A DNA stretch of 62,039 nucleotides, counting the filler, from Hausera hauseri (Eukaryota), in NCBI GenBank assembly GCA_046269625.1. It is 11 parts of 11 records of this genome, joined end to end, with 100 filler letters (N's around TTAATTAATTAA, not from the genome) between each part and the next. Parts side by side here need not be neighbours in the genome. Positions count along the whole stretch, not along the records: positions 46,159 to 50,577 come from JBJURY010591445.1; 10 more parts are not named here. The stretch is one strand, 5' to 3'. How positions within the stretch are numbered: the first letter of the stretch is position 1; each line of letters starts with the position of its first letter. Under the pieces are notes generated by a model. The model had not been told where the DNA came from and did no database searches. It worked only from the letters and a program-made list of their open reading frames with translations. The position numbers and the translations under genes were made by a program. This document shows, piece by piece, positions 29,798-62,039 of the stretch.

Positions 29798-31566
29798 TCA
29801 TCATCATCATCAGGTGCCACGCTGCGAAGCATAAGGTTTTCATGGATCTCCATTTCTCGCGATTATTGGTATCAACAATCATCTCTGCTGTTGACCTACT
29901 TCGAATCCTTCTTGCAAACCGTCACTTAATTCATTGCCATCCACTACTTCTACTTCCTGGTATTTTACCTGTGGTGGCCAAATTCTCTTCTTAAAATATG
30001 CCAATCATAGATGCTTGTCTCTTTCTGATCTTAGTGATAAGCGTTCTTTCTGCATCTGCTTCTTGTAAAACTTCTTCATTTGTTCTCTTTGCTGTCCAAG
30101 GGATTTTCAATATTTTTCTGGGAAACCACATCTTTGTTGCTTTTAAATAATTTTCCAATTTTTTACTCAGTATCCAAGATTCGCAGGCATACATTATTAT
30201 GGGTTCGACATAACACTGCTGGACTTTCTTTCTCAATGACAGATTTGTTTATAATAATATGCTTTTCATTTTCTGGAATGCTGTTTGTGCCTGTGCAATT
30301 CTGATTTTGATTTCCGTGTCACATCTGCCATCTAATGTTACAAGAGTTCCAGGGTATTTGAATTTCTGCACTTGTTTTACTTTTGTCGATTTAATCATTA
30401 CATTGCAAACTGTTGAGTCTTGTTTCTTAGAGACTGTCATCATTACTTTTTTTATGTTTAAGCTGAGTCCATTCTTTTCACTTTCAGTTATTACAGTATT
30501 GAGCATCTCTTGTAAAACCCTTTCATTTGTTGCTATTAGCACAGTGTCATCTGTACAGCGTAAGTTATTTAAATTATATCCACCCACTTTTAATCCTGGC
30601 AAATCTGCTACTGATCTCATTATGTTCTCACTATGTACAAACCTGTCGTACACCCTTTTTTTATCTCTTGGAATGGTTCTTATTGGTTTCCTATTCGTAC
30701 ATCTACCCTTTGTTGCCAATAAAAGTTCTTTATCTGTCTTAGATCTTTACCATCCACGTTTTGTCCTCGAGCATCTGAATAATTTCTTTGCGCTTAACCT
30801 TGTCAAAGGTCTTGGTGTAATCAATAAAGCATAAATATAAATCTGTTTGAACTTCTATTGATCTATATATGTACATATAACTATATACATATAATATATT
30901 TATATAGCATTATTTGTGCCCTTTCCATGGACAAAGCCGTACTATTCTTCTGATATTGTTTCTCAGTCTTCTCATAATTATTCTCAGCATTATTTTTGTC
31001 CTATGACCCATGAGACTTGTAATCCTGCACTCTTCACGTTCTATGACACCTGAGCTTTTCGGTAGTTATAAAAATTGATTGAAGTAAGTCTTCTGATATG
31101 TTCCCGCTATTGTAGATATCATTTAAGAGTTTTGTTTTGATTTCAATTCAAAAACACCTGTTTAATATAGCTTCTCTTACTTCGTCTTCAAGTATTGGTA
31201 GACCATGCTCAGTTTTATTGTCAGTTATTTCTGGTATATTATCATTGTATAGTTCTCCTAAGTATTCTGACCATCTTGCTATTACTTCCTCTTTTCCCAT
31301 TAATATTTTACCCTCTTTTAATTTGGTTCACCCTGTTGAACCATTTGCTCTTTTCCCTGTAATGTTATTTATTGTTTGATGCATATTTCTTGGATTTCGT
31401 TGCTGTATTTTTATCTCATTACATCTTTTATTTAGCCAGTCTTCTTTTGCTGCATTACACATTTTTCTTATTGTATTACTTAATTGTCTGTATTATTCTT
31501 TATCTTTTCTGTTTATTCTTCTTTGTTCCATTACATTTAATAGCTCTACTATCATCCATTTTTGTT
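29797..31566 (-). mobile_element. RTE-clade non-LTR retrotransposon, 3' part, decayed
   Basis: GLKVGGYNLNNLRCTDDTVLIA (YADD region), GLSLNIKK, QVQKFKYPGT, EIKIRIAQA, YACESW, LKIPWTAKRTNEEVL. (GAT)n 3' tail at 29797-29812. Confidence 0.92.
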
Positions 31567-32924: not shown

Positions 32925-35800
32925 ACATGTCAGCGACAACAACAACAACAACGACAACGCAATTGAAACATGTTCCATCCATTGTGCGAAACCGGTTGGA
33001 ATCTGAAGTGGATAAATTCCAACACCACAAACACCACTGCAAAGTAAAGTATTATGCACTTACAGAATTCGAAAATGTGCAAGGCGACAGGAAACAATGG
33101 TACCTGTCACATCGAGCACTACCATATACCGAGGATTTTATCCCTGAGATTGGCGAAAAGCTTGAGGAGAAAATCGCCAACTACTCGGAAAAGGGTAGTG
33201 GATGGCGAATTGTAAAGATTGTCACTCTATGCTTTATCATTACAAAGTCTTGTGACATGATTTACTTGTCGGAAGATCATTCATACCGACACATGCAGCC
33301 CTAAAGCACTATAAAACTGTAGTCAATGTAGAAAGTAATATCGATGAATACTGTTTTCTTTACAGTATTTTAGCCCTATTAAAATATGACGAAGTACGCA
33401 GAAATCGTGCAAATCGTTCAAAACAATATCATCCGTTTTTTTCCGATCTGGACTTTGATAAAACCTCAATGCCGATGAAAGTCAAAATCATTCCGGCTTT
33501 TGAACGGCATAATGCGACACTGTCAATCAACGTTTTCCGGTACAACTCAATAATAGAGATACAGGCAGATGAGGAAATTTACAAGAATCCTTAGGTGGAT
33601 ATAATCTGTCGAAGTCGGAACCCAAATGGACGTCCAATATACCTGTTGTTGTTGGAGCAGGCAGAAAAATTTATTACGTGGCCGTAACGAATCTGGACAG
33701 ACTGCTGAATATGGACCATGACCAGTTTATCCAAAAACAAATACGATGCAAATGGTGCCCTATATATTTGCACGGCTTCAGATCAGAAGCGACATGGGAA
33801 AAACACGTGGTGCTATGCAGAGGAAACGTATCGAAAACAATAATGTACGTCATGCCCGTCAAAAAGGAGCTGAGATTCAGTGGCTGGTCGAAAACGGACA
33901 GTCTGGTATATATGGTCTATGCCCATATTGAACCAATTCTACTGCGGCACAATGTATACGACCAAAAGCACCTTTCAGTCGCCGTCGGTATGTTGTTAAT
34001 ACAAATAAAAGCCACGGGACAACCGAAATATTACGTTTTCCGCGGATGGAGCTGTGTACGTGATTTCCTGCACCAGTTGGAGGCAATAGTGGAAGCGGAA
34101 GTCGCACCGTGGTACAGTAACAACAGCACTAAGCATTTGCTCTGGATAAACGAAGACGAACATCTGACATTTGCAGTCACAGATAAATGCTACATGTGCC
34201 ACAAAATATTAACATTCGATAAAAAATGGCTCGTACTTGATCACGACCACTTTACCGGACGATATCTGGGAGCAGCATGCAATTCATGTAATTTAGCACG
34301 GCGTGTGCGGCCATTCCTGCCGGTGATATTTCATAACTTCAGGTGTTATGATTGTCATTATATTCTGAAATGGGCCATTAACAAATTTCCACACTGGGAA
34401 CTGTCCATAATCTCAACAACGATGGAGAAATACCTGTCTCTGTCGGCACGTATAAACCGGTTCCAGGTGCGATTCCTTGACTCATTATAGTTCCTCAATG
34501 AGTCTCTAGCATAGCTGGTAAATGCCTTGCCGGATGTGCCGTTAACATCAACGCAGTTTCCGATGCATATTGCACGTAGCAAAGGCATATCCCCATATGA
34601 CTTTGCTGTATCGTACGAGTGGCTTCAGACAAAGAAGGAATTGCCGCCGCAATGGCCCAGTATAACAGAAGATGAATATCGCAGAGCACAAGAATCTTAG
34701 TCAGAGCTCGGCTGCAGAAACCTGTTGGACTACATGCTCTATTATATAAAACTGGACGTGTACTTGCTGGCCGACGTGTTTCAGACATTTCGAACTAAGA
34801 CGTTTGTGGAAGATAGGCTGGAGCCGCTCAACTTTTACTTCATACCGGGAATGAATTGGGCATCAGCTCTGATATCACTGGACTGGGACATTGAGCTGTT
34901 TTAAGACCCAGAAATGTACCAACTGTTTGTTGTTGGTATTTGTGGCGGCACGACATTTGTCAACAATCACCACGTAACCAGTGATGATAACACTACGTAA
35001 CTGCTGTACATTGACATTAATGACCTGTACGGCTGGGTGCTTTCGCAACCCTTGTCGTACTGTTCATTTGAATGGATACGGACAAGCAAGATCTGGAGGC
35101 AATATTGGAAAATTTACCAAGAGCAAACACGGCAGAAAACAGCTCATTCGACTACCTGGTGGAAGTTGATCTCATGATACCGGATGAGTTGCATGACGCT
35201 TTTGACCAATTGTTTGTCGCACCAATTAATCAATGTTCTGTCGGCGGCTCAAAGGTGAAGAAACTGCTCATGACGCATGAATCGAAGTCAAATTACGTGG
35301 TTCAATGGCATCTGCTACAGTTCTACATGCAGCTCGGTGTACGCGTCACACAGCTGCATCGAGCAATCAAATTCAATCAGGCGCCGATATTCAAGGCATA
35401 CATTGACGGAAATTCACAAAAACGAGACTCAGCTTGTACAAAGTTCGAAAAGGACTACTACAAGTTAAAAAATAATTCTCTCTACGGTAAAACAGTAGAG
35501 AACCTCAAAAAGCGACACAATATGCGTCTATGTAACAACGAAAAGCGGCTGGTTACATACACCAGCAAGGCTCAGTTCAGGCGGGCAATGCATATTGCCG
35601 ATGGATTTATCGCCATGCTGTTAAACAGGGAAGAAGTCGTACTGGACAATCAATGACTGTGCGTCAAACGACAATACGGTTGATTGAGCACCAGCTGTAT
35701 ACTATAACAAACATAAAATTGGCTTTGTCATGTAATGATGATAAGCGAAAGTGGGTGGGGCGAAATAAGAGTTGGGCATATGGGTATTGGCGTTTGAAAT
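32925..35800 (+). pseudogene. Polinton/Maverick pPolB, decayed, motif C region deleted
   Basis: EKGSGWRIVKI; DHDHFTGRYLGAACNSCNL; FHNFRCYDCH; LLYIDINDLYG (motif A); KLKNNSLYGKT (motif B); C-terminal KLALSCNDDKR. No YxDTDS is present between about 35650 and 35690. Confidence 0.93.
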
Positions 35801-38689: not shown

Positions 38690-40111
38690 TTACTGATCCA
38701 ACGACAGAGGGATATGAATGAATTTGTCCGATGTTTTACTTTTGTATCTTATTGACTCTGGCTCGTAGATCTCTCCATCGATTGTTATTGTTTCATCCGT
38801 CTGAAATTTCCTTTTTCTGCCAGAGGTTGGTGCTATTCGCACCTGCTCGGAGGCCGAAGTCTGTGTGATGATTTCGTCGGTCCATTTCAATTGTTTATAA
38901 ATGGCCTGGTAACACTGTACCAAGGCTGTACTTCGGAGTGGCATTCCACGAGTGTCGTAGAACTTCTTTGCCAACTCCTTATAAGTGTTAGTGGTTAACT
39001 GGTATTTGCGGATAGCCTCTTCGTGATAAAGAATATCGCGAACTCCGGCTATCCGCCTGACTGGGCATTTGCAGTGATTAATCACCATCTCGAGCACATC
39101 GGCTCCGATTATGATTCTATCTGTAAAGACTTCTGTGATTTTCCGGTAAAACTCATTTGCGTCCATCTGGTTATTGATATGGGATTCTGCCAAACCCGTG
39201 AGGTGGGTATCGAAATTATTAATTCTTTGGCGTGGGGAGATGACACTATAGAAGAGTGTCTGGCCATCCAATGCTATAACCGAACATTCAATCGGTTGCA
39301 TTTGATTCCACTGGTCATAGGCTAGGTTAACAGCAGCTATGACCAGGTCGTCGTTGGTAACACTTTGTACTCTTCTGTAAGGGACTGTTTTGTATCGTAC
39401 GTAGTCGGGTTCCGGAAGATGGAAACATTTTCCTTCTGGGATCAACGGTTGAAAATTCTCGTGCTTGATTATCTCGAATGCGATCATTATACGGTTAGAA
39501 AGAGACCGAATTTTCAGAGTGTTATCTTTTATAAATCTATAATCGAAAGCTAAGACATGGTCGGGATTTATATTGATCAAGTCTCCTTGTATGAAAGTTT
39601 TACGACTGGTGGTCTTTATGTGAAATTTTCCTGCTACATTGTATACATTTATAGAATGAAATCTTTCTGGTAGGATGATCAAATCTTGGAGGTGAAAAGA
39701 AGTCGCTTTCGTTAATTGAATTAGGGCGAGAGATCTATTGCCCATACTATATCCTTTGAGGTTGTTGGGAATTTGTGGTGTTTGAGGATAGTTCAAACTG
39801 TAGGTGTAATTATTGTGAGTCACATAACATTTATTGGTTGGGATAGCATTGATAAGATGCGTTTTGACATTTGTAAACCAATGTTTTGATCGGGAGATTG
39901 ATTGAATTTTATGAGATGTCGAGGTTGATACTATAAAGGGAAATGCCAATTGCGAGTTAATATAGATATTTACACACAACACAAGGGTTATCAAGCACAC
40001 AGTGGTAATCGTTGTAGTTTTATAATTTAGTTGATCTCTATAGGTAACCTGATGACTGGTGGTTAACTCTATTAAACGGGTTGCATCAATAGCAACCCCT
40101 AGGCTCCACCG
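38690..40111 (-). CDS. Intact ORF with C-terminal DEDDh (REX4/ISG20-like) exonuclease fold lacking catalytic acids
   Basis: ECSVIALDGQTLFYSVISPRQRINNFDTHLTGL...KITEVFTDRIIIG...VRD...YKELAKKF follows the REX4/ISG20 pattern. The frame is open from 40111 to 38690. Confidence 0.7.
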   Translation of the reverse strand, partial: RWSLGVAIDATRLIELTTSHQVTYRDQLNYKTTTITTVCLITLVLCVNIYINSQLAFPFIVSTSTSHKIQSISRSKHWFTNVKTHLINAIPTNKCYVTHNNYTYSLNYPQTPQIPNNLKGYSMGNRSLALIQLTKATSFHLQDLIILPERFHSINVYNVAGKFHIKTTSRKTFIQGDLININPDHVLAFDYRFIKDNTLKIRSLSNRIMIAFEIIKHENFQPLIPEGKCFHLPEPDYVRYKTVPYRRVQSVTNDDLVIAAVNLAYDQWNQMQPIECSVIALDGQTLFYSVISPRQRINNFDTHLTGLAESHINNQMDANEFYRKITEVFTDRIIIGADVLEMVINHCKCPVRRIAGVRDILYHEEAIRKYQLTTNTYKELAKKFYDTRGMPLRSTALVQCYQAIYKQLKWTDEIITQTSASEQVRIAPTSGRKRKFQTDETITIDGEIYEPESIRYKSKTSDKFIHIPLSLDQ

Positions 40112-40400: not shown

Positions 40401-41028
40401 ACAACAACACAACACAGCACAACACAACACAACAAAACACAATACAGCACAACAGAGTACAACACAACACAGTACAACAAAACACAACACAACACAGCAC
40501 AACACAACACTACACTACACTGCACAACACAACACAACACAACAACGCAACACAACAGAACACAACGCAACACAGTACAACACAACACAACACAACACTG
40601 CACTACACTACACAACACAACACAACACCACACAACACAGCACAAAAAAACGCAACACAGTACAGCGCAACACAACACAACACAGCACAACACAACACAA
40701 TCAAAACAACAATGCACTACACTACACAACACAACATAGCACAACACAACACAGCACCGCACAAAACAGCACAGCATAACACAACACAACACAGCAGAGC
40801 ACAACAAGACACAACGCAACACAACACAGCACAACAAAACACAACACAACACAACACAACAATGCATTACACTACACAACACAACACAGCACAGAAAAAC
40901 ACAACACAACACAGCACAACACAACACAACACAAGAAATCACTACACTGCACAACAACAACACAACACGACACAACACAACACAAGAAATCACTACACTG
41001 CACAACAACAACACAACACAACACAGCA
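40401..41028. repeat. (CACAA)n degenerate pentanucleotide microsatellite
   Basis: Seen directly in the sequence. Confidence 0.97.
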
Positions 41029-41136
41029 CTAGCTTTGTGCAATAGTACATTTGATTAATGATAAATATATTTTTATTATTTTCGAAGTTTTGTTTATATT
41101 GTTCACTACTTCTGATCGAAAAAATCATGAGCTCAT

Positions 41137-45995: not shown

Positions 45996-46167
45996 CTGAG
46001 AGGAGAGACGGAGGAGGGGGACATATGATCGTAAGGGAGGCGAGCCGAGTTCATGGGGNNNNNNNNNNNNNNNNNNNNNNNNNNNNNNNNNNNNNNNNNN
46101 NNTTAATTAATTAANNNNNNNNNNNNNNNNNNNNNNNNNNNNNNNNNNNNNNNNNNNNGAGGCGTAC

Positions 46168-46329
46168 CTTGGCGGAGCGGGTGATGGCGGGGATCTCGGA
46201 GTAGACGTCAGAGGATTGTGGGTAATTGTCCTCCAGCAGGCTGCAGGTGTGGTGCAGAAGCGAGTGGCGGTGGACGGTGTCCTTCACCTCCACCACCTTC
46301 TCCAGGTAACTGAGCTCAAAGCCTTTGGC
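46168..46329 (-). CDS. FHOD1: Vertebrate (teleost-like) FHOD1/FHOD3 formin FH2 exon
   Basis: cag|[54 protein letters not shown]|gt, 162 nt with GC-rich codons. The paralog assignment is uncertain. Confidence 0.85.
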
Positions 46330-46920
46330 CTGCAGGTCCACAGAAAACACAGGAACATGGAGAGAATGTGGACAGAAACAGCTCAGTGAAATCACAAATG
46401 GAACTTTTGCTTCAACAACAAATCGCAGCAGAGTTCCTTTCTTGCAGGGTTTGAAAAAATAAAAATAAACTCAATGAAGTGATCCGACCGGATGTCTAGG
46501 TTCATTAGACTGTTCTTATCAAAAACTATCATATACTCAAGCTTCACTGATTGTTCTTCTGAGCCAAGGGAAGCCAAACAGGTCCGAATTCATCATGAAA
46601 AACAATCCTAACAAGATCTGCCTTGATCGATTGCCAGCTTTAAACAGCTTACTGCAAAATATAAAAGCAGTAAGTATTTACGGTAACCGCTTGTTTTGAT
46701 GTTGATGACTTGTGTTTCCCCTTTTAGATGTTTGGTTTCTGATTCCAGAGGCTCACACACCCGCAGAGGCACATGCATGTGATGAAGTGAGAACAAAAAC
46801 ACAGAAACATGAAGCATGAACGACCAACACCTTCAGGTCTGATCTCAGGCTTTTCAAGTGACACGTAGGTGGATTTTTATGTTCTTCAACATTATTATTA
46901 GCACACAAAAGGATTATCTT

Positions 46921-49410
46921 CATCAATGCAGGAAAAGGTGCTCGAACCATAGAGCCTGTAAAGGATATCGTTGATTAATGGTAGAGAATAGGCATCCATT
47001 GTTGTTATGATGTTGAGTTGGCGGTAATCACCGCATGGGCGAAAGGTGCCAACTTTTCTGAAACCACATGTTGGAGTGAAGACCACGGGGATTTGGATCT
47101 TCTGATTATTCCTGATTTTTCTAATTCGAGAAACTCAGCCTCCACTGCCTGTCTGCAGCGAGGCAAAAGTGGGCGGACCCTTTGACGTATTGGTCTTTAA
47201 TGTGCTGTTACTATGTGATGGAAGGTGGATTTAGGTGGTACGAATGATTTGTCCTTTTGCAACAGACGTATGCAGGAAGAGGAAATATATTGCTGTAAGT
47301 CAGAGGACAACGATGAAAAGTTTTCAGATGGTGTCGATGCTTCGTGACTGGATGCAGTTGAGATATGAGTTGTAGACGAGATGTTGTGACTAGGTGGTAT
47401 TAGGTGCAGTGTTCGTGCTGAAGATGGTGTTAGCAGCTGTACTATCAGCAATAGGTGCCACGCAGTTGGCAATATCATAGTTGTTGCCGCAATAAAAATT
47501 TCTATATAATGGATGATTATAAAAATAATTTAAATTGGAAGTCGTTTTCTTTAGTATTGACTTGCTGAAAGCGATCGCCCGGGTAGTCACCAAAATGCTG
47601 ATAATTTGATTAAAATTAATTCCGCTCTTTAAGGAACATCGTTTGCAGTCTACAAGTAAATTGTAGTGGGACAGAAGGTCTGAACCCAATATAGGTGTGC
47701 GTACATTGGCTACTGTAAATTTCCAAGTGAATGTGTTTGGGAAATTTGGAAGTGTAAAGGTTAGTTTCGTAACACCAAAAGTTTGTAAAGGTTTACCGGA
47801 CGCAGTGAACAGTTGCTTTTTTGAACTGAAATTATTTTGGATGTGCTGTGTTGGTGGTAGTAAAGAGATTGCTGCGCCAGTGTTTATCAGAAAATTAATG
47901 TTTTGCTTTGCTGGAGTGACGACTGCTGCTTCCAACGCGAATACAGCAAAAGAAATGTGTCGGCTATCTTTTTGTAGGTTGTTGCCTTTGCTAAAACTTG
48001 CCGTGTATCCTAGCGGCGAAATCAGTTTTTTGTAGCTGGTGAGTTTGGCCTGCTATTTTGTGTGAGTTTGGTAGTGCTGATTTTATCGTGCGTGTTGTAG
48101 TTGCAGCCAGGTAGGCATTTTTGTGCTTTTGTTCCAAATTTTGCGTGATAGATACAAACGATGTTGCTTGTGTTGAAATCGGGGGAGTAAAATTTACAAC
48201 CGATGCAGCATTTCTGAGCATTGTTACCAACTTTGTTGTGATAGTAGCAAATAGACGACCGCGCGGGCGAAGGCAACCGTCTTTGTCGTTGATGAAATAC
48301 ATTAGGGGAAGCAGCCCTAGAAAAGCCTTGTCGAGGCAGCGTTAAGTCATTTAATTTCTCGTTTATGTTATTAATTGTTTTTTGCAACATTTTTATTGTT
48401 GGTGGTTTGTTGTTGATGCCGCAGAGACAGTCGGTGTTGTGTGTGAGTGCAGCACTTCATAAGCTTTGTCCGCCAGTTCGGCCAACTTTCCCAGTGCCGT
48501 GGAGTCTTCGACTACAGTCAGCAAAGCTTTTATTTGAATGGGCCATGCGTTTAGGAAGTAACGACGAAGAAGTTTTGGACTATGCTAAGATGTTACGCCA
48601 AGGGTATTGAGGTGAGACAAGGATGTGCGCAAGAATTCAGAAGGCTTCTGAAGGCCCATGGCGTTGTCATTAAAGAACCTTTGAATGATAGAATCGATTG
48701 ACGGCCCAGTGAACTTAAGAACGGCATTGTAAAGTTGAGCATATGGATCGGTGTGGTGAAGGATGTCGACGATGTTTGTAATTTTAGTTGTGATAGAAGG
48801 AGGTAAATGAAAAAATAGGCTGTTGGCTTTGGATAAGGAGTCGACGACGTTTTGTGATTGGAGCCAGAATTGATGAAATTTTAGCCATGTTTGGGTGGAA
48901 TTTTGGCTGTCGAGGAAGTATTCTGTGCAGGGTGAATGAGTGGGGAGTGTGTGCTGTGTCGAAGTGTTTGAAGTACTTTGTTTGGGTAGGTAAATGATGG
49001 AGATCGGTGGTTTGGCGGGTTTGTCCGTGGTATCAATAGTGGGTGATGAATCCATGCCACCACGGATGCGGGTGTATATGAAAATAGATATTAAATGAAG
49101 ATTTCAGGGTCTCAACGAGAGGTACCCTGGAGCCGTGGTGTGTGAGATAAAAGTCAGGTGAGCAAAGAGAAGTGGAGATGACGGTGTAAATGGCAGCAGT
49201 GCTTAAGTGTGTAACTGCATTTGTGCAAATGTGTTCGTTATTTAGAAAAAAGAAAAGGATGTATATGGAGGTCGTGTAACCTGGGGCGTGTGGTGGTGCG
49301 GCAGCGAACGGTGCCGTCTGACCCAGTGGTATAGGGTGGGCGGCAGGGGCTTCAGCCTCGCCGTGACGGGCCGCAAACTGCGGGGTAGCCAAGTTTCCCG
49401 CTTGCAGCCA
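46921..49410 (-). mobile_element. CsRn1-like Ty3/gypsy copy B (leader-UBL-gag-PR-partial RT), broken in mid-RT
   Basis: RIRGG|MDSS at 49070-49044; gag with MGLQKPSEFL and two CHCC motifs; FLINTGAAIS; FRPCGDYRQLN. Ends abruptly at STFSCID. Confidence 0.9.
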
Positions 49411-50243
49411 AATTTTGAAAATCGTGATATTGATTGTTTTCGTGAGTTTTGGTGGGGTTTGGTCGGGCTCCTATGGATTAACCAAAATAAAATTGTCATC
49501 GTATAAAATGAAATACAACAGGCTGTCCCATGTAGCCTTGTTAATACTTGTAGATTTAACAGCAACGTTTTGAACGGTAACAAGAGTGTGTTCGACCAAT
49601 TCATCAATTTCTTTAAGCAAAGGATTACAATCCGGTTTCGGTTCGATGCCTAAATTATAATTGGCCGCCGAAACATTTAGAATTTGCAAGAAATACGTAT
49701 CAACTAAATTCTTGAAGAAACTACATAAGTTGGACAGAATAACCAAAGCATATTTATTGGGTGACGATTTAATACAATTTGGCAAATCAGCCAGTGGTGA
49801 TCAAACGGAACTATCGGTATCTAAATCATATTGCAAGTTTGACAACCAAAAACAAAATGTGAACAGAATGCTTAACAATTTCCATATTATTAATTACGGA
49901 TATTTTACGGCGTATTTCATTACTTTGAGTATCCAGTCAACTTCTATAGCTGTTGTTGCAGCAACGGTTTTGGATTTTGTTTGTAACAGCTTTAGTTGAC
50001 TAGAAAAATTGTTTATCCTTTGCGATATCCTTTCAAACATCACGATTTGCTACAGTCGGAGTATTGGTAATTCGATTAATTTCAAATAACAAATGGTAAC
50101 AGTTACGTTCGCCACCCCTCAAACTTAACAGAACTTGATGGGCAATTACAATAGCAACATCAGGTGGAAAATTGTCTAATGTTGATGTATTATCCGGGAA
50201 CTTCTGTAAATTTTCTAATTCACATTCATAATCGTTGTACATA
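49400..50243 (-). pseudogene. RALGAPB: RALGAPB N-terminal fragment, intronless and decayed
   Basis: MYNDY...TSTLDNFPPDVA; EVDWILKVMKY; PNKYA..ILSNL..FF; VQNVA..ST.INKATWDSLLYFIL; IFKIWLQA. These resemble RALGAPB MYSEW...TSVLHSYP, EVKWTMEVICY, ETWE.LLLFLL and LFEVWLLA. Confidence 0.7.
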
Positions 50244-50677
50244 TCACTGCATGCAATTATAAAACAATAGTTTTGTAAAGACCGTCTAACGTGCAGATCA
50301 GAATGTTTAAAATTCACAATGGAAAAAAATGTTAACTTCGTGAAAAAATCTTTGTCCATGCGACACGAAATAAACTGGTATGTTTTCCGAAACCATTTAT
50401 CAAATTGTATTTTTGAAATACGTTTTTGATTGAATTGTCTTTCTAAATCTTTGTACAAACGTATCGCTAAATTTATCGTCGATTCAGAAATAATTCCCAG
50501 TTTAGACAGATTCGACTCATTCTTTGATGTCATTTCACCAACGAATAGTTTTTGTTTCAACGGCGGTTCACAGGTTTNNNNNNNNNNNNNNNNNNNNNNN
50601 NNNNNNNNNNNNNNNNNNNNNTTAATTAATTAANNNNNNNNNNNNNNNNNNNNNNNNNNNNNNNNNNNNNNNNNNNN

Positions 50678-53600
50678 CAGAGTCCATAATGGCCCATCTA
50701 GTCCTAAGAATGCTGCAAGAAGAATCGCCCCACCCAGTCCTCATGAGTCTCGAAGCGCACAATCCCATTGCCAGTTATTACAGAGATTCCCCACCCGCCC
50801 TGATAGTTTCCAGAACAACCCACAGTTTCGAGAAAAGAAGATTGATAAAAGTACGACAAGTCTCAATTACGAATCCTCCCAACCCTCTGCGGTATTTGAG
50901 CAACAAAATGGTGTTCCAGAACAGTATTCACGGAATCAGAAGAAAAGAACGTACGAGATTAACGTTACCTCGGATCCAAGTTCCTGCGTTATATATTTTG
51001 AAAAGATACGCGTCAGAATTCTCGTGGACACGGGCGCGCAAATAACGATACTCAGTGAAAGAGTTTATAAAATGTTGACGAAAAAAGGAAAGCTAATGCC
51101 ATGTGATATTGACTTACGATCTGTCTCAGGAAGTACCCTCCACGTATTAGGAAAAGCTAACCTAGAATTTCGCATAGGCAACAGTACGATGAGACACCCT
51201 TTTGTCATTGTTAGAAACATGTCTCGAAGCCCTATACTTGGAAGAGATTTTCTCAAAAAAAATAATGCGCGAATATACTTTGACTTAAGGAAGATCAAAA
51301 TCAATGATGAATATGTCGATTTACAAGACGACATTCACATTGCTTCTATCGCTCGGGTCACGCAACAGGCAATTTTGAAACCTCACTCAGTCAACTTCGT
51401 TATGGCAGGTTTGAAAAGTAGTGATTATTGGCACGAGAATGTCGAACTTTATGTGAACCACTTGATGATTTGGTTATTGATGAGCCTGGTCTGGAGATAA
51501 TAAATGGCATAGTGCACTGTGATCAGAAACGACGACTTCCCGTCATGGTAGGTAACCATACCGGCAAAATGATAAAATTAAAGAAGGGATGCATTATTGC
51601 TAAATCAGCCAAGCCAAAAACTCCTATGGGCTTTAGTCAAGATAACACACAAAGTGGTGATGATCTGATAGCTGATAACCATTTGACTTCCGTCGACGCA
51701 CGGGAACAACATTACCGCCATAGACAACAAGTCCTTAAGTATATTAGAGAAGGTTCGTGGAAACGAAAAGCGTACACTGAGATTGCAGAGTGCATAAATC
51801 CAGAGGAACGAATAGCAAACTTGTTGGCCATGTTGAAAGTCGATTCCGGACATAAGGCAACAATCGAGAACTTTGTGGTTAAACATCAAGATGTGTTTGC
51901 TCTGTCTGATATGGAGTTAGGAAGAACTCAAACGGTTGAAATATCGATTGATACAGGAGATCGCCCACCTATTAGTCTCCGACCATATCGAACACCATTG
52001 GGAAACCGAGACATTTTCGAGAAAGCAGTCGAAGAAATGCTACAGGCAGGAATAATTGAAAGGACACACTCTGAATGGCCATTTCCGGTGGTCATCGTTT
52101 CTAAGAAAGATGGTACGCACAGATTCTGTGTCGATTATCGCTCCTTGAACGCGATTACGACGAATGTGAGTTTTCCTCTTCCGTTAATAGACGACATCCT
52201 AGGAGTACTAAATGGATCGACGTATTTCACTATGTTAGATGCTCGCTCCGGATTCTGGTGTATTCCCATGACACCTGAGGTGAAACAGGAAATGTGCTTT
52301 TTACACTCACTCCGGTCCTTATGCCTGGAATGTTATGCCGTTTGGTTTAAAAGGATCACCGGCAACGTATATGTCTTTGATGAGTCAAGTATTGGAAGGG
52401 TTGCAAACTTTTGCGTTGGCATACATCGATGACATTCTGATTTTCACCAAGGGAGATATTGTAGACCATCTGCAGCATATTGAAACTGTCTTCGACAGGT
52501 TACGACAGCATAAAGTTCGTCTGAAGCTCTGCAAGTGTGAATTTCTGAGACAAGAGACTCAATATCTGGGATTTGTTATTACGAAACATGGCATCAAGGC
52601 GGACTCAGAAAAAGTTCAGTCAATTCGATCGATGGGTGTACCGAAGAACACTAGAGAAGTTCGTGGATTCTTGGGAACATGTGGATATTATGGACGCTTT
52701 ATCCCTAATTTCTCTGCAATAGCAGAACCAATAGTTGCGCTAACGAGGAAATTCGCCCGTTTTCAGTGGGATGAAACTTGTCAGAAAACTTTCGATTATT
52801 TGAAGACTAGCCTCACCATAGTCACGAATCCAAACAAGCCATATATTCTGTATACAGACGCATCAGACTATGCTATTGGAGCAGTCCTCGTCCAGGAAGA
52901 AGAGCACATAAAAGAAACAGGCACGACTGAGATAAAGGAGAAACCTATATACTTCTTGTCCCACAGGCTCACCAAGTCTCAAAAGAAATGGTTGGTTACC
53001 GAAAAAGAAGCTTACGCTATTCATTTTGCACTTCAAAAGCTCAACTTTTACTTGCATAATAGCCAGTTTACGATCAAAACTGATCACATGCCTCTCAAAG
53101 CGATGATGCGATCAGATGTGCAAAATCGAAGAATTCAACCATGGGTCTTAAACTTACAAGGTTACAATATGCACATCGAATATATACCTGGTCCAGAAAA
53201 CACAGTCGCTGACTTGCTATCACGCATGCCTGAGAAAGATCCGTTAGTAATTGAGCCAGAATGCACAGATGAAATACCCGACATTGATGATCACACTCTT
53301 CAAGTGTCTGTCCTCAATGCGATGGAACCACAGCAGTCAGACTCATACAGTAACTCGGAATCAGAGACGAATGATATAGAGACACTGAGCATGAAGGAGG
53401 AACAAGAAAAAGATGTTGCCTTTCGTCAAATAATACAGGATTTGAAATCCGATGCAAAGGAAAGCTCTTCTAAGTGGAAAAAGTATATGCTAGATGATAA
53501 TGTTTTGTATAGATTGAGTGGTGAAGGCACATTCCAGCTATCCATTCTAGTCATATGACGCATAAGTTGCTAACGCAATACCATGACAACTTAGGACACC

Positions 53601-55499
53601 TTGGGCGCGACAGAACGTTTACGATGATAAACAGGAAATATTATTGGCCAAACATGCAGAAAGCCATTGCAGAATATGTTATGAATTGTCTGGCTTGTCA
53701 TTTGAGAAATATGGAAATATTATGACACCCTATGCAGGAACCCACACAGGCGCACTTTCCTTTTGAGAAAGTCAGTTTAGACCTGTCGGGACCACATCCG
53801 TTGACTGCGTCCAGGAACGTCCACATTCGTCATATCGACATTTACAGTTGCCGGTCGGAACTGCATCCGTTACCCAATAAGGCTGCTGAGAACATTATTG
53901 ATGTTCGATTAGAAAAGTATATACCTGTTTTTAGTTGCCCTCTGGAAATCATTACAGATAATGGCACATAATTCGTAAACAGAGCAATGAAGGAAACATT
54001 GAAGGAGTTAAATATAAAGCATATAACTACTTCATATTATAATCCGGGCGCAAATGGTGTTAATGAACGCCAGCATAAGGTGATTTATGACGTTATAACG
54101 AAATATGCGAAGGATCAGTTACGTTGATAGAAAACGGGATTAGAAAATTCTCACCTTTTGAGATGATTTTCGGTAGAGATCCTATTCTTCCAGTGGACAT
54201 GTTATTCCGACCACGACTCCGATACCATGGAGATGATTTTCACCAATACTTACTACAGAAGCTCCATGAAATCACTATCAAGGTCAGTCGCAATGTTAGA
54301 AAGTCATTCCAAATTCGCAAGATAAGAACCGATAACACTGCTGTGCATCAAGAGTTTGACATTGGCGATAAAGTTTGTTACAGACAGCATCGCAGAAGTT
54401 CGAAAATGCAAAACCGTTGGATTACAGGGTATACCATCATTGAAAAGTTAGGTCCTATATCATATCGCATCTCCAATCAACTCACAGGACAAACAGCGAG
54501 AGTTACAACGTCTCAGTTAAGACAAGATGATCGGTCGTTTCCTACAGAACAGCTACCTTATACGACAGGTATGGTTAGACGATCGAGATATGTTGTACTC
54601 CCTGAGAATATGAATTCGGAAGAAGCTAGTGATACAGAACAAACAGAATTATCCGATACATCTGAGAGTGACACACGATACGAATTGTGTATACCACCTC
54701 TTATGTTACCGAAGGACACGAGACAAATGGCGTGTAGAACAGACACCCAGTCTAATAGAGAGATTCCACGATAGCAAACTGAAACGGAAGCCCCATACCA
54801 GAATACTAGAGCTGCAGCTAAAAGGAAGTTTGAAGAAGCTAGAAGACAACAATGTAATAGTCAAAGAATTGAGCTAAGTAGTTCATCGGATGACTCTGAT
54901 ATGCCGTTGTTAGTGTATCGCGAACGTCAGTTACAGCAGCAGGCTCAAGAAAATGAACAAGCTCCAGTAGTTGAATGCGAAAGTGGTAAAGTTGATGCAT
55001 CAGATTCCGACTTGTCTGATACGGATGAAACGGATGAAATGGTTCGCAGATGGAAAAGACTTAGAGATTCTAGTACCTCAGCTGACCCGCTACCACAACC
55101 GAAAAGAGCACGACAGGCAACGTTGCGACAGAAACGAAAGAAAAAAGTACAGACCAATGATCTGATGGAAATAAAAGAAGTTCCAGATGCTGATGAGAAT
55201 TACATTACGCGCCGAAGAAATATGTTGATCACAGAAATGGGTATGCGAAACACTCGCGTGCATAACAAAGGCATTGCACCAGATGTTAAACAATTGACAT
55301 TAGCGTTTGAAAGTATCTTTGAGGAAGCTGACCTTCTTACCTTATCCACCAAGCAAGTGAGACACATGTTAGAGGAAAACTTTACCATTGACTTATTACC
55401 TAGAGCACGTGTAGTTGATGATTTGGTTATGCAGTTATTTGATGTGGATGTAACACAGTTGACTGTTCGTCAAAAACATGTTCACCGAAACAGAAGTCT
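50678..55499 (+). mobile_element. Ty3/gypsy retrotransposon of a different lineage: PR, RT, RNase H, integrase with long C-terminal extension
   Basis: ILVDTGAQITI; KKDGTHRFCVDYRSLN; AYIDDILIF; LYTDASD, TDHMPL; HDNLGH...CLAC; VSLDLSGP, ITDNGT, NGVNER. Confidence 0.95.
55279..55437 (+). CDS. DEK-C-like domain at end of integrase extension
   Basis: PDVKQLTLAFESIFEEADLLTLSTKQVRHMLEENFTIDLLPRARVVDDLVMQL fits the DEK_C pattern (P...L...I..IL..ADL..VT.KQVR..LE..F..DL..R...I...V...L). Confidence 0.72.
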
Positions 55500-55599: not shown

Positions 55600-58000
55600 T
55601 TTTCCGACAACCGTCGACAAATATTCATCTTCGTACATTCATGCTCGAAATAATTACACAAATGAACTGCAGGAAACAATTAATACTTTGTTAAATGAAG
55701 TCAGCGTCATTCTCGATTACGAACGCAACAATGCTGATTACATAAGAATTGCCAGTTCGTCAAAAGCATTTTTCTACTCCGGCCATGGATTTGTTAACTA
55801 CATTTGTCAATGGTTAGTGGCCATTTGTGCAAAAATCTCTGTGACATACGAACTGATTTTGTCGATAAATGGTACGAATCAATCAACGGATCGAATGAAA
55901 TGGTATCACATTCTAATAATAATGTGTTTAATTGATATTTTGTGTAAAACGTTGAAGAGCAAAATGATTGATTACGAAGTGATATCGATTATAATGAAGC
56001 TCGTTGCACAGCCGACTGCATCTTATTTGGGTGATGAAACATATCCGTGAACGACATGACAGTTCAATCGTCAATAAAATTATCGAATGCCTTTTGAGTG
56101 AACCCTCTCAACCACAAGAATATGGGAAATAGCCATCATGCTTACTTGTTCTCAGTCATTTTGGTCCTCAGTACTCCCGTCAGTTACAGCCAGCTGCATA
56201 CGGGGAATTAAAACAAGACATACAGGAATCAACTGGCATGAGGACATCGAAAAAGGTCGTCAATTATCAAACACTAATTTATTTTACGTTATCCTTGGCA
56301 TTTCGAAGTGACGGTCTTGAGTTTACAAGCACAACGATATTAATTCTCCGGAAAATCATTTAGCAATTTACAGCGAAACAACTCGAGCATTTCTTTCTGC
56401 AGCAGAATTTCGGTGAGGAAAATTTACGCAGTTTTTACCACAAGATGTTGAATATTCTGATGACATCGTTGGATATTGAAATGGGACGGTTGTTGGAATT
56501 TCTCGTGCTTCACGTTCATTGCACAACGACTGGGCGATCGAATGTCACATGCTGTTCTCCGCAATTTTCTCAGGTTTGTACGAATATCGTACCGATGGTC
56601 TGCTCTAAATTGCTGACGCAGTCACATGCGTCACGTGTAACCCGCACGGGTGGTAGTAAATTGTTGTCATTGGCATTATTGAATGCGGTGTTACACAAAT
56701 TGGAATATTGGATTCAGTATGTTATTATGGAGGGTAACACTCGCTGCGAAACCGTTGACGAGTATCGTTATGAATGATTTTAAATTTGTCAGCGAGGATT
56801 TGATTGTGGCCATTCCGCTCAACAATCCTCTCGATGTCATGCATATGCTTGTTGGGTTAGCTGCCTTCGGTCCTTCGGCAATTGCTCCCCCCCCGCTACT
56901 GCCGGTCCAGCTGGACTTCTGCGACTCGTGCCTGGTCATTTTTTCGTTGGTGCTCTGGGCAGACAATCGATAGACACTTTCTGTAACGGTGTACAATCGG
57001 AAGGTGTTCTTATCGAAACTAACAATGACTTATTGCGAATCGCGGCTCTTTGCATTGACAAGATCCCCCCTTTCTCGATCGCGTCACCGACGCATTTTGT
57101 CTTAGTCAGTTAATTACCGTTCTACTCGAACAGCGGATGGGTCAATCTGCCATACTTTGTATATTGTTGACAGTGCTCCACGAGGGATCTTCATCAAGTA
57201 TTCCCATACGGAAGGCACTACTACGTTTGCTCTGTCCCGTTTTACTGAAATTCCGAGAAAACACGGATTCCGCTAATTCACATTGTCTTACTAGACTTAA
57301 CAAAGAATTACAACATGAGCCCGATGACACAATGGCCGCCGTACGCACCTGGTTGCTGGCCATTCTGGAAAATAAATTAACTAACGATGCTAATTATCTG
57401 AGTCTCGTTATTTTATTCGTCCAAGTTCTTGCCTCCAGTTGTCAGGAGGACAATAATCGCAATTTGTGTGTTGTTGCCATTTGATGTATCATTCGATTGG
57501 ACGACGATATTCGACACTGGTTGGCTGTTTGTCACGTTCAACAGAAACAGACTGCTGATGTTGGCACTGCCTGTACGAACTTACATGTCGTTATCGCGTT
57601 GACTTGCATCCTCAGTAATGGCTGTTGTCCGTTGCCTGTCTACATCAGTCTTATACACACTTTATTTGATTGGAAAAGAGATTAATCGATATTTTGCAAA
57701 ATTCATTGGACCTGTCATCGCTGACAAACCAGCCGTCCGATCGTTGAGCATACCGCCCCATGTAAGTTGTCCTGATTACAATATAACAATTTTAGCTAAT
57801 ATGTTTCTAAATAACCATAACCTCCATAAGATGATCTGCCTCCACAGTGCACAAAAGCTACTCGAAATTTTGACACAAAATACATTTCGCACACATTTTC
57901 TTCAAAATGTGAACACATTAATCTCTGATAGTGCCTTTAATGTTCGGTTTAACAATCATATTATCTACAAAGATGAGGTGGCACTTCTTAGTCCTATTTT
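55600..58000 (+). pseudogene. Decayed, apparently intronless host-gene fragment(s), helical-repeat-like, unidentified
   Basis: Run of same-strand Leu-rich ORF fragments (55688, 56445, 56683, 57137, 57618) directly 5' of copy C. Confidence 0.45.
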
Positions 58001-58009
58001 AAAACACCT

Positions 58010-61000
58010 CAGGCTGAAGATTCGGCCACCTTGCAATTTGGTGCCCGCCCCGCTGGGGCGGAGGTCCCGGCCGTCAACCCTGCGCCGGTCGGTTGGACGG
58101 CACCTTTCGCGTCGGCCCCACGCCACGCCCCCAGGCGCACTACTTCTTCCCCCTTTATTTTTTTTCCTCAATAATACCCACATTTACACAATCAGTACAT
58201 CACATTTACATATTCCAACTCTTCGTACCTTCGTTTTTTTCTTACTTAACTCTTCCGATTTTTACTTCACCCATAACGGCGCTATCATACATTCACTGGA
58301 ACCCTACCATTTTTCTCAAGCCACACTTGCCTCTGCATACATCTCCATATCCGTGGTGGCATAAACTCTTCGCCAACCATTGACACAACGGATAAAACCA
58401 CCACGAAACTAAAATCTGTCATATTACTTCAAAAATCCACTCATAATCCTTCTAGCAACTTCCCACCCATTACCTCTTCCGCTCCTTTCCCTAACTGCAC
58501 CGAATTTTTCATCGACAACCAAGGCTCCAGCAAACCTTTCTTGCAATTCAATCAGCTATGGCTACAGGCAAATAACATCACTGACTCTTTAACTAAAGCA
58601 CATAATCTTCTCTTCTTACTGCCTAATAACATCAGAACCCGCATTCACAACATCATCAAAATCTTCGAACTTCCAGACCCATATTTCCAACTTTCTAACG
58701 CAGTTCTTAAGATCACGGAACCTTCAATGGACACGATCATACAACGTTTCTTCCACAACATCGTTATAGGCACCCAACGACCATCAGAATTCTTACGTAA
58801 CTCTTTAGCACATCTACATACCATCGGCGTTACTAAGGAACACAACCCAGATCTACTGCACCACTATTTCCTCAATGCGTTACCTATCTAAATCCTGGCC
58901 CTACTTACCGTGGTGGAGGACTCCACGCCTCTTGAGAAATTGGCCGATTTAGCAGACAGGACACACGATGTCCTACACGTAAATTCTTCGCCAGTCGTTT
59001 CAGCAGCAGTTGCCACTAACGATAATACATCCATAGAACAACAACTTCATCAGCTACGCGCTAAAAACATTGCACTACATGCAACAATCAACAATATAAA
59101 TAATAAATTAAACGCAGTGTCCCTGTCCCGACAGGGAAATTTTCTCGCTGACCGCGCCCGTTCTGCGTCTAGAAACCGCTCACCATCGCCTGCGCGTTCA
59201 TCGATCTGCTATCACCACAGCAGATTTAACACTAATGCTCAGAAGTGTTGCCTAGGGTGCAAGTTTTATAATAAGATATTTTCCTCGGACACCGTTGTTT
59301 GCATCTACCATGCAAGGTTCAAAAATCAGGGTCGTAGATGCATTCCAGGCTGCAGTTTCAAATCAAATACGAACGAAAAACGTACTGCCTTTCCTTCTAA
59401 TAGTTGCCCTAATTCACCCTTTCAAAAAAACTAAGTTCGCCGCCAGAAGTCACGGAAAACTCTGGCAAAGGTTGAGCACATCTCAAAGCACGTCTCTTTC
59501 TGTCTTTACTATAAAGGCTGCAATCACCGCTCCTAGAACGCAATCTGTTGACTTCCTCATCGATACAGGTGCAGCGATTTCTTTATTTCCACAAACCTTT
59601 CCTGTACAAAATTCTTATACACTGCTTCAGGCCAACCGCTGCACATTTCTGGCATGTTTAAATTCTTTCACTTTAGCAAATTTTCCTACACCTTTCCACT
59701 GGACGTTCACAGTCGCTAACGTCTAGACGGCAGTTCTGGGATCCGACTTTCTCTCATACTACAATTTACTGGTTGACTGCAGCCAGCGATGTTTGAGGAA
59801 CGGCATCACTGGGACATTTCTGAGCATGTCAATAGCATTTCAAGTACCGCACAGTCGATCGGAATGCGGAAGTCAATCTTAAAAAGTCAATTCAATTTTT
59901 TATAACAATAATTCCATTCGTAAATTTTTAAATAACACTATTGTTATACGATCCAGGTTCGATGTCGATAATCGTGATACTGCCACCAACGTTAACTCAT
60001 TCGACGAAAATACTTCATCCAAAACCATTTTCAATTCGACCATCTTACACCAACAACTCACACATTGCATCCGCTACTACTCAAGCCGTTTCACCAATTC
60101 CACCAAATCTCTCACAGTTACCTACATCTTTACAGCAATTCGGCAACACATCAGGTCCACGCGTACTTAAAAAAGACCGTACGTTTACTCCCGCAAACAG
60201 TACTTTAGACCACATAGTTACACAGCATCAACGACCTATACGCCAAAACGTACGGCTTCTGTCGCCTGGTCGTCGACAGACTGTAGAAGCCGAATTTCTC
60301 GAACTAGAACGTTCTGGCATAGTACGCCGTTCCAAATCTCCTTGGTCATCACCTTTATACGTTGTACAAAAAAGGACGGTAATTTTAGACCATGCGGTGA
60401 CTACCGACAGCTGAACAACTTGACAATAATGGATGCGTACCCTTTACCATTCATCAAGGATATTCTGCATCGCCTTAATGCAACCACCATCTATTCGACC
60501 ATTGATATAGATAAAGCATACCATCAAATACCAGTGGCACCCGAAGACAGAAAAAACTGCTGTCACTACTCCTTTCAATTTCTACAAATACCTGTTTATG
60601 CCATTCGGCTTGCGAATGCCGAAAAAACTTTTCAGCGCCACATTGATTCAATTCTTTCCGATTTCCCATTTTCACACCCTTATATCGATGATATTCTAGT
60701 TGTTTTATCTTCGGTCAAACAACACGAGTAACACCTTCGTGCCATATTTCAACGTATTAACCACCATAATATCCAAGTCAATTTCGACAAATGTCATTTT
60801 TTCAAAAAGCGCATTAACTTTTTAGGCCACATTATTTAACCAGACGGTCATTCTTCCCAATCAGACCGAGTTGAAGCTCTTAGAAACATCCAGTTGCCAC
60901 GTACAACCACCGAAATGCGCAGCTTTCTCGGTACACTACACTGTGTACATAAATATACACCATATTGCTCCGAATTGACAGCACCATTCGCACACCTAAG

Positions 61001-62039
61001 CGGCGGCAAAAAACATCAGCCAATCTAGTAGACACCTGAATTGGTTGACAAATTTGATAAGCTACGCGAAGGAATTAACACCGTCGATATTCTAGCTTTC
61101 CCCAAGTCTGATGCAGAACTCATCCTTACTACAGACGCGTCAACCACTGCAGTAGGCTCTGTACTTTACCAGATCTACAAGGGGGAAAATCAACCACTAG
61201 AATTTTTCTCTCGCAAGCTAACAGCCCCTGAAACCCGATATTCAACGTTCGATCGAGAACTATCGGCCATCGTTCTCGCTTTAAAGCATTTTTCCAACCT
61301 ACTTGTTGCTCGTCATTTTACCATACAAACCGATCACAAGCCCTTACTTAACATCATGGTTATGAAACACCCTTCCACACGCCAAAAACGACAAATATCA
61401 TACATATCGACATTTAACTTCGATATTAAACACATTATCGGGGTTAATAATTTAGTTGCTAATTTTTTATCTAGGTCGGTTAATTCGATTAATTTTTCGC
61501 TGATCTCTACGCAAGATCTAGTTCAACAGAACCGCCACCTCAGGACATGCTTAATTCTTTCAAATCTTGAACAATCGTTGACGGCGTGGCTTTAGACACT
61601 TCCAAACCAGGCCAGTTTGTAATAATTCTAGCACCATCATTGCAAAGGCAAGCATTTCACAGCGTTCATTCACTAAATCATCCTGGTGCTAAAGCCACTT
61701 TTCGTTTACTCCATCGACAAGTAATATGGCCTTCAATGCGTTCTGATGTGCAGGCATGGGTTAAGGAGTGTGTGGCTTGCCAAAAATACAAAACAGGTAA
61801 GCATTTAAAGCCACCAGTATTCCACTTTCCCTGCACATCGCGTTTCAAATCCGTGCATATCGACATCGTTGGCCCTCTTCCTCCAGACAACGGTCATCAG
61901 TTCATCCTCACCATGATGGACCGTTCCTCGCGATGGCCAGAATCCATCCCTCTGCGGAGCATTAACACAGACACCATAGCTGACGTTTTCATTCGCACAT
62001 GGATTAGCAGGTTTGGATCACCTCGCTTCATCATCACGG
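58010..62039 (+). mobile_element. CsRn1-like Ty3/gypsy copy C (leader-UBL-gag-pol), decayed, runs off the window
   Basis: HLHIRGG|INSS at 58340-58372; gag with GTQRPSEFL and two CHCC motifs; FLIDTGAAIS; FRPCGDYRQLN; YIDDILV; LTTDAS; VHIDIVGPL. Confidence 0.93.

Follow-up and report, generated by a model that had tools for sequence, protein, structure and literature searches.

Where does translation of Gag begin when the frame in front of it carries no start codon? This question is raised by a 62,039-nucleotide stretch of DNA from Hausera hauseri (assembly GCA_046269625.1; hereafter the window, 11 parts of the genome joined by filler), which holds three copies of a long terminal repeat (LTR) retrotransposon family: copy A (17050-25009, minus strand), copy B (46159-50577, minus strand) and copy C (55600-62039, plus strand). 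In this UBL-Gag family, a ubiquitin-like domain (UBL) precedes Gag, and a GC-rich linker joins the UBL to sequence derived from host genes, the cargo. The original prediction held that the linker lacked an ATG and was under coding selection, and that translation started upstream in the cargo, at a non-AUG codon or via splicing. We assign copies B and C to a CsRn1-like Ty3/Gypsy family in which both the LTR and the leader are patchworks of pieces from host messenger RNA (mRNA). An in-frame bias suggests that the family keeps host mRNA pieces, primer site, linker, UBL and Gag in one frame.

In copy B, a RALGAPB-like open reading frame (ORF) runs from 49785 to 49051 (minus strand) as ...IFKIWLQA-GNLATPQF...HAPG-UBL in a single frame whose sole stop is a TAG at 49473-49471, as had been described, and the Pfam domain RALGAPB_N matches this cargo-linker-UBL frame (E 1e-4). 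No ATG occurs in this frame of copy B or between 58000 and 58360 of copy C. The linker of copy B (49278-49398) is open in the frame of cargo and UBL. The UBL (49056-49277) ends in RIRGG, with the GG at 49061-49056; because the frame slips near 49070, the UBL frame stops short of RIRGG. Confusion of the frame by indels, earlier ascribed to copies A and C, was seen in the UBL of copy C, but this slip shows that copy B is affected too. Directly after the GG, an in-frame ATG (49055) begins a broken Gag (48022-49055), which contains DUF7041 and, like that of copy C, two CHCC motifs (CX2HX9CX3C).

The cargo next to the linker of copy C (57603-58012, plus strand) consists of PP2A-scaffold-like (PP2A-A) and Piwi-domain pieces, identified by Pfam on the sister copies L052 and L089; a reading of this upstream ORF as a second UBL was dropped. 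It is followed by the linker (58013-58135), a UBL with frame slips that ends in HIRGG (58136-58360; GG 58355-58360), and a broken region of Gag, protease-like sequence, reverse transcriptase (RT), RNase H and integrase (58361-62039), for which Pfam gave the order RVT_1, RT_RNaseH, Integrase_H2C2 and in which the contig end cuts the integrase. An ORF of 253 codons (57603-58364) has ATGs at 57618, 57801 and 57831, and its frame covers most of the UBL. Copy A, of the A-like subfamily, has a UBL with its own ATG (22228) and an LRGG end at 21992-21987 (21987-22228, minus strand), preceded by RME-8/DNAJC13 pieces, other cargo and a diverged linker (22229-25009, minus strand). Gag and pol lie downstream of the cargo in all three copies.

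A genome search with the linker and UBL of copy B gave 1113 first-look candidates, 40 of which were scored. Pattern searches and fetches yielded 132 distinct B-like copies, after duplicates and nine matches without anchor had been removed from 170 rows, and separate searches yielded 29 C-like and 30 A-like loci; copies with less than 150-170 nt upstream were left out of the counts. Similarity between copies ends sharply at the core read AGNSAT, above which many unrelated sequences stand. In the linker frame, Pfam detected Piwi, PP2A-A HEAT, NUP210, NOMO, Myb, Tudor, RALGAPB_N and DEAD domains, and Pfam or Protein Data Bank (PDB) matches added a NatA subunit, TPR, Helicase_C, CDC5L, UBR4 and UFD2. 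All three frames were submitted to Pfam for eight loci and the linker frame for the others; seven of the eight gave a linker-frame match with E<=0.01 and the eighth gave none, and one of the seven (L277) also has an upstream RecQ match in another frame. Chimeric cargos such as the PP2A-A-Piwi fusion of copy C are common. A related predicted protein from another assembly (P0002/P0023, ENA) joins a CNOT1 piece, linker, UBL (ending in RLCGG) and related Gag; it has Ser after the GG, and neither a UBL-start ATG nor a Met after the GG. It also contains a Rrp44-like piece, and its N-terminal part may be a gene-calling chimera.

The reading frame of the cargo was evaluated by counting stops over the 150 nt that precede the linker. 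The linker frame carried 0.78 stops per 50 codons, compared with 3.87 and 2.52 in the other two frames, and was stop-free in 70 of 127 copies, compared with 4 and 21. When the 155 B- and C-like copies were clustered into 40 cargo classes, the linker frame had strictly the fewest stops in 31. Chance microhomologies of 5-8 nt between cargo ORFs fall in frame in 39-48% of cases, and the excess gave p=1e-8 against 1/3 and p=1e-4 against 0.48, values that are optimistic because classes share nested junctions. Junction frames were therefore not random, and the expectation that they would be in frame more often than one in three held even above the microhomology null. A-like copies showed the same trend more weakly (1.4 stops versus 2.2 and 3.0).

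The open frame extends beyond the cargo next to the linker. The element is ordered as LTR (a fixed head of about 105 nt plus variable host pieces), primer site, host pieces, linker, UBL, CHCC Gag and RT-RNase H-integrase. The 3' LTR opens with its GC-rich head after a G-rich tract downstream of the integrase, and the head is also present upstream in about ten contigs that hold the linker. LTRs are about 0.65-2.4 kb long, and their interior is host sequence, including DEAD plus PWI helicase, kinase, RING, SH3 and ankyrin pieces. A second fixed point, AATAAA-TGGTGTCAGAA, lies about 600-2800 nt above the linker. One LTR class has a sharp end, behind which 6 of 30 loci carry the primer site and the other 24 carry unrelated DNA. 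We regard TGGTGTCAGAA as the primer site because it extends into tRNA-like sequence in 12 loci; presumably it is of the tRNA-Leu rather than the tRNA-Trp type. ARAGORN found no whole tRNA at these extensions, and its tRNA-Leu call in L091, antisense inside UBR4-like cargo, was judged spurious. In L352-L363, the primer site runs 20-45 nt into tRNA-like sequence and then into differing DNA, and in L355 the extended site is joined to gag-like sequence. In L113, a tandem copy, the UBL start and the primer-site module meet at a shared AATAATAAA. No target-site duplication was seen at L181, the one two-ended LTR checked among these short contigs.

Over the last 120 nt of the LTR, the primer-site frame was the open one in 15.3 of 22 classes (0.61 stops versus 2.3 and 2.6), and over the 120 nt after the primer site in 6.5 of 10 classes, counts in which a few fuzzy matches may be spurious. 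In L089, about 500 codons with one stop lead from LTR cargo via the primer site and Piwi to the linker. In copy B, the 3' end of the 5' LTR (50401-50577, minus strand; boundary taken from sister copies, truncated by the contig end) is open in the primer-site frame, and the degenerate primer site (50385-50395) reads K-W-x-x-K in the long frame. Pfam matches directly behind the LTR head, obtained for 8 of 41 heads, were split 4/3/1 between the three frames. Since no frame bias is present just behind the head and a bias is present downstream, the frame constraint appears to begin inside the LTR. A GTG within the LTR head was considered as the start of the ORF and dropped in view of the 4/3/1 distribution and equal stops.

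Copy B also indicates a possible source of the start codon. A flatworm-type spliced leader with an ATG at its end was identified at 50250-50293 (minus strand). Its 35-nt core (50284-50250) matches the Macrostomum lignano leader in ends and length (comparison sequence as excerpted from PMC8629364), and an ATG at the 3' end of flatworm leaders is described in the excerpted text of PMC12582326. A literature search with the leader motif gave no paper. The core has 70 exact matches in the genome; in the 30 loci read, it is followed by 29 different sequences, and no spliced-leader RNA gene with a GT donor and Sm site was found among these 30. A stop lies two codons behind the leader ATG of copy B. 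The ATG that follows, at 50242, opens what is presumably the N-terminus of RALGAPB and, given also its position behind the leader, is likely the host start. The cargo from this ATG to the junction (49399-50242) contains, besides the TAG, a frame slip near 50010, a point on which two other copies concur; after copy-private indels are discounted, the distance from the ATG to the linker is a multiple of three.

Intron loss and junction microhomology were examined for RALGAPB only. L257 carries an exon between AG and GT, and copy B crosses its 5' border without an intron. The host protein reads LQA-CRKC where the element reads LQA-GNS, and 7 nt are shared at the junction. Given the leader and the loss of the intron, the cargo of copy B is therefore the 5' end of a mature trans-spliced RALGAPB mRNA, and the start codon that copy B lacks most likely lies upstream, in the cargo. 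As the leader module occurs in some lineages only, the source of the ATG varies. Other leader loci gave further observations. L258 is a long intronless RALGAPB copy with the same leader, which passes the junction point of copy B without a linker there. In 6 of the 30 loci (L324, L328, L326, L330, L339 and L347), the LTR head comes shortly before the leader, behind which a host ORF starts; the spacing from head to leader is about 107 nt in L324 and L328. Hence some LTRs carry mRNA 5' ends. In seven others (L322, L323, L331, L333, L335, L338 and L343), a different shared 5' sequence meets the leader at a fixed point and is each time followed by another gene start. These seven loci are possibly a second element family that captures mRNA 5' ends. 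The cargo of L335, whose Pfam reference was in the wrong frame, is presumably kinesin.

Selection on the linker was then compared at two scales. Between copies B and C, the 37 linker codons compared show 6 differences at first, 11 at second and 17 at third positions (Fisher p=0.001), and the proportions of differing synonymous and nonsynonymous sites (pS 0.55, pN 0.21) agree with the coding selection originally proposed. Family-wide, however, a codon alignment of many copies gave ratios of nonsynonymous to synonymous change (dN/dS) of 0.82 and 0.89 for the two halves of the linker within B-like copies and 0.8-1.0 over the B-like tests, figures that are biased because many copies were collected by exact linker patterns; copies with indels (28 of 132 B-like, 7 of 29 C-like) were left out. 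The net linker dN/dS between the B- and C-like subfamilies was 0.54, the lowest of six frames, with a confidence interval of 0.25-1.23. Amino-acid constraint on the linker is thus mild, and it is clearer in the UBL (dN/dS 0.54, with 0.6% stops) and in Gag (0.44).

The linker of copy B also resembles the reverse complement of the LTR head. In ten same-contig pairs, this resemblance gave z-scores of 0.7-7.4, and the antisense comparison beat the sense comparison in 81% (B) and 63% (C) of pairs. The linker may be an inverted copy of the head and may, instead or in addition, pair with it at long range; being antisense to the head, it may be conserved partly as RNA. Head-linker covariation within elements was not detected, own pairs being no stabler than cross pairs (p=0.13, n=10). 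The head is partly self-complementary and pairs nearly as well with the reverse complement of the linker, and A-like linkers showed no antisense signal against the sampled heads.

The domain between linker and Gag has an RxRGG ending as its commonest form in all three subfamilies, and R-x-R-G-G is invariant in 29 open copies that were themselves selected on that motif. A-like copies have Ser after the GG, and B- and C-like copies lack the UBL-start ATG and have Met after the GG. From its sequence, the evidence for a UBL is weak: Pfam ubiquitin matched just 1 of 29 copies (E 0.1), a search with the UBL alignment among longer proteins found no homologue, and the longest single-stretch match among PDB sequences was the SDE2 chain (E 0.007); a full-length match fell on a ubiquitin repeat of an OAS-like protein. 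A first AlphaFold model (pLDDT 61) gave no UBL match in a wide fold search. A second model (pLDDT 58) has strands at 3-8 and 11-17, a helix at 23-34 and strands at 41-43 and 46-48, in the register of ubiquitin; its top Foldseek rows were ubiquitin or UBL (TM score about 0.5, best E 5e-3), and VIA gave Z 3.6-4.9 with root-mean-square deviations of 3.1-4.9 over about 59-73 aligned residues. The Atlas model of P0002 reached TM scores of 0.70-0.73 to ubiquitin domains. The domain before Gag is thus predicted, at low confidence, to adopt the ubiquitin (beta-grasp) fold, and a host deubiquitinase is predicted to cut after RxRGG and free Gag.

We propose that Gag is probably, though by no means certainly, made as a polyprotein of host cargo, linker, UBL and Gag that starts at an upstream host-derived AUG and is processed at RxRGG. 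Reverse transcriptase would switch template between element RNA and co-packaged host mRNA. Ribosomes would take the first AUG of the LTR-started transcript, so that only captures open down to the UBL would leave the element still able to make Gag. The UBL would free the N-terminus of Gag from dependence on the upstream fusion, and the linker would have to stay open, whatever peptide it encodes, with pairing to the LTR head as a possible second role. Among the starts originally suggested, one upstream in the cargo gained support from the junction frames, the reach of the frame into the LTR, and the leader and likely host start of copy B, and neither non-AUG initiation nor splicing gained any.

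Several observations weigh against this proposal. All copies are decayed; nine of the 40 cargo classes do not favour the linker frame, and by eye there are about a dozen distinct direct junctions, the classes not being independent. Distances from primer site to linker fall in all three frames in single copies. A PDB search with the N-terminal 100 codons of copy B found no match, and both UBL models are of low confidence. Openness inside the cargo is no proof of selection, because the share of in-cargo stops (0.2-0.8% in six classes, 1.8% in one) matches simulated neutral decay (0.55-1.0%); selection for openness within the cargo, which we had considered, is inseparable from such decay. Moreover, downstream starts are available: an ATG follows the GG in 91 of 106 B-like and 23 of 27 C-like copies, 26 of 29 A-like copies have one at the UBL start, and the ATA codon of copy B's linker is ATG in 50 and ATA in 49 of 127 B-like copies, figures subject to the same collection bias. 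The original description of the linker as lacking an ATG is therefore right for the frame of copy B and for 58000-58360 of copy C and wrong family-wide. A conserved linker ATG was nonetheless not found, being present in 39% of B-like copies and in 1 of 22 C-like copies, 17 of which have GCG at the same codon.

These ATGs are the basis of a different account, which we consider rather unlikely: Gag would be translated from an ATG further downstream, be it within the linker, where the UBL begins or behind the GG, the linker would mainly be an RNA element pairing with the LTR head by which ribosomes bypass the cargo, and in-frame junctions would reflect microhomology bias and avoidance of nonsense-mediated decay. 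The antisense relation of linker and head and the high dN/dS of B-like linkers agree with it. Yet coding constraint acts on the UBL, which lies upstream of the post-GG ATG, a linker ATG is rare in C-like copies, and the 31 in-frame classes exceed the 48% null; furthermore, pairing specific to an element's own head and linker was not apparent, the head is partly self-complementary, and the antisense signal is missing from A-like linkers. That the AUG is instead replaced by a non-AUG start near the linker, or supplied by splicing or trans-splicing, is the least probable account. The host has spliced leaders that end in AUG, a pyrimidine run precedes the UBL and C-like linkers mostly lack an ATG, but inspection by eye showed no conserved AG behind that run, the linker motif occurred in none of the 30 leader loci within the fetched flanks, and the in-frame cargo and the open LTR end would be left unexplained.

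It is very doubtful, too, that function is what preserves the captured fragments, for instance as Piwi or Tudor decoys that would counter piRNA silencing after being cut off together with the UBL. Piwi-derived sequence adjoins the linker in about 40 of 155 copies (hand count), at several junction points, with a dN/dS of 0.62, and there is a Tudor piece as well. However, cargo dN/dS ranges over 0.6-1.05, several classes give equal or lower values in other frames, and the fragments cover only parts of domains. Most cargo comes from unrelated housekeeping genes, and the Piwi pieces may simply reflect a high level of Piwi mRNA in cells in which the element is active. We infer that the cargo peptide is mostly a passenger. 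A fuller scenario, in which an autonomous family without a start codon or leader of its own borrows those of captured host mRNAs, has a UBL cut site that lets any host fragment precede Gag, makes a chimeric host protein from every active copy and has its Piwi/Tudor decoys selected, seems distinctly improbable. The proposal of a cargo-linker-UBL-Gag polyprotein started in the cargo is compared below with known systems.

Ubiquitin-fusion precursors such as SDE2 and the ubiquitin-ribosomal fusions consist of a UBL-GG followed by the mature protein with a fixed N-terminus, and in Ty1-type elements the ORF overlaps the LTR and primer site. The UBL-Gag family resembles them in its UBL-GG and in an ORF that crosses the primer site, but differs in the exchangeable host cargo before the UBL. 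In the excerpts of Tan et al. (2016; PMC5131818), metazoan LTR-mediated retroposition is described as leaving a retrocopy that replaces part of the internal ORFs and a nonautonomous element. As far as those excerpts go, the UBL-Gag family is similar in its partial spliced host mRNA, junction microsimilarity (7 nt in copy B), multi-gene chimeras, sense orientation and further rounds of copying, and is unlike in retaining gag-pol downstream, in having cargo within the LTR as well and in joining the cargo in frame to UBL-Gag. In cytopathic pestiviruses (BVDV CP Rit and Osloss; excerpts of PMC8310069 and PMC13517609), ubiquitin is inserted in the polyprotein and host hydrolases free an authentic N-terminus. 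Host-RNA-derived sequence and a ubiquitin moiety within a polyprotein would likewise be our working model; judged from these excerpts, the pestivirus case concerns an RNA virus with recent, near-intact and sporadic ubiquitin, whereas the UBL of our family is diverged and fixed, and its cleavage is predicted only. The CsRn1 clade (PwRn1, AgCR), as far as excerpted from PMC2582038, has the CX2HX9CX3C Gag motif, RT-RNase H-integrase and a tRNA-Trp primer site. The UBL-Gag family shares with this description the CHCC motif (here in two copies), the pol order and the flatworm host type; it differs in its N-terminal UBL and host-filled LTRs and presumably in the type of primer site. No UBL-Gag or in-frame cargo-UBL-Gag element was found in the literature searched, which comprised few subscription papers and no supplements.

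Other features of the window were also noted. At 15390-15476 (minus strand), an LTR head of the UBL-Gag family is followed by long host-like ORFs (14734-13160). Broken protein-primed DNA polymerase B-like ORFs at 33573-35656 (plus strand) are presumably Polinton/adintovirus-like. An ORF of 473 codons lies at 38690-40111 (minus strand), and we take its C-terminal part to be DEDD-exonuclease-like. A long simple repeat of CAACA type occupies 40401-41030. We further take 30249-30746 (minus strand) to be an RTE-like non-LTR RT fragment, and 50678-55499 (plus strand) to be a second, unrelated and broken Ty3/Gypsy pol (protease, RT, RNase H, integrase).

Capture of host sequence by LTR elements is already known; the in-frame cargo-UBL-Gag arrangement with retained gag-pol appears, as far as the literature searched goes, to be the new part. 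Gene capture usually cripples an LTR element, and a UBL adaptor, if our proposal is true, makes capture cheap: the element would stay autonomous while reshuffling host coding fragments into one translated frame, and chimeric host peptides would be predicted in germline or stem cells. Such an element would be an endogenous parallel to the capture of oncogenes by retroviruses and of ubiquitin by pestiviruses. The family also offers a natural large-sample test of template switching, through its junctions, frames and spliced-leader ends. Cheap capture via the UBL, if true, would explain the LTRs filled with host genes in the genome of Hausera hauseri.

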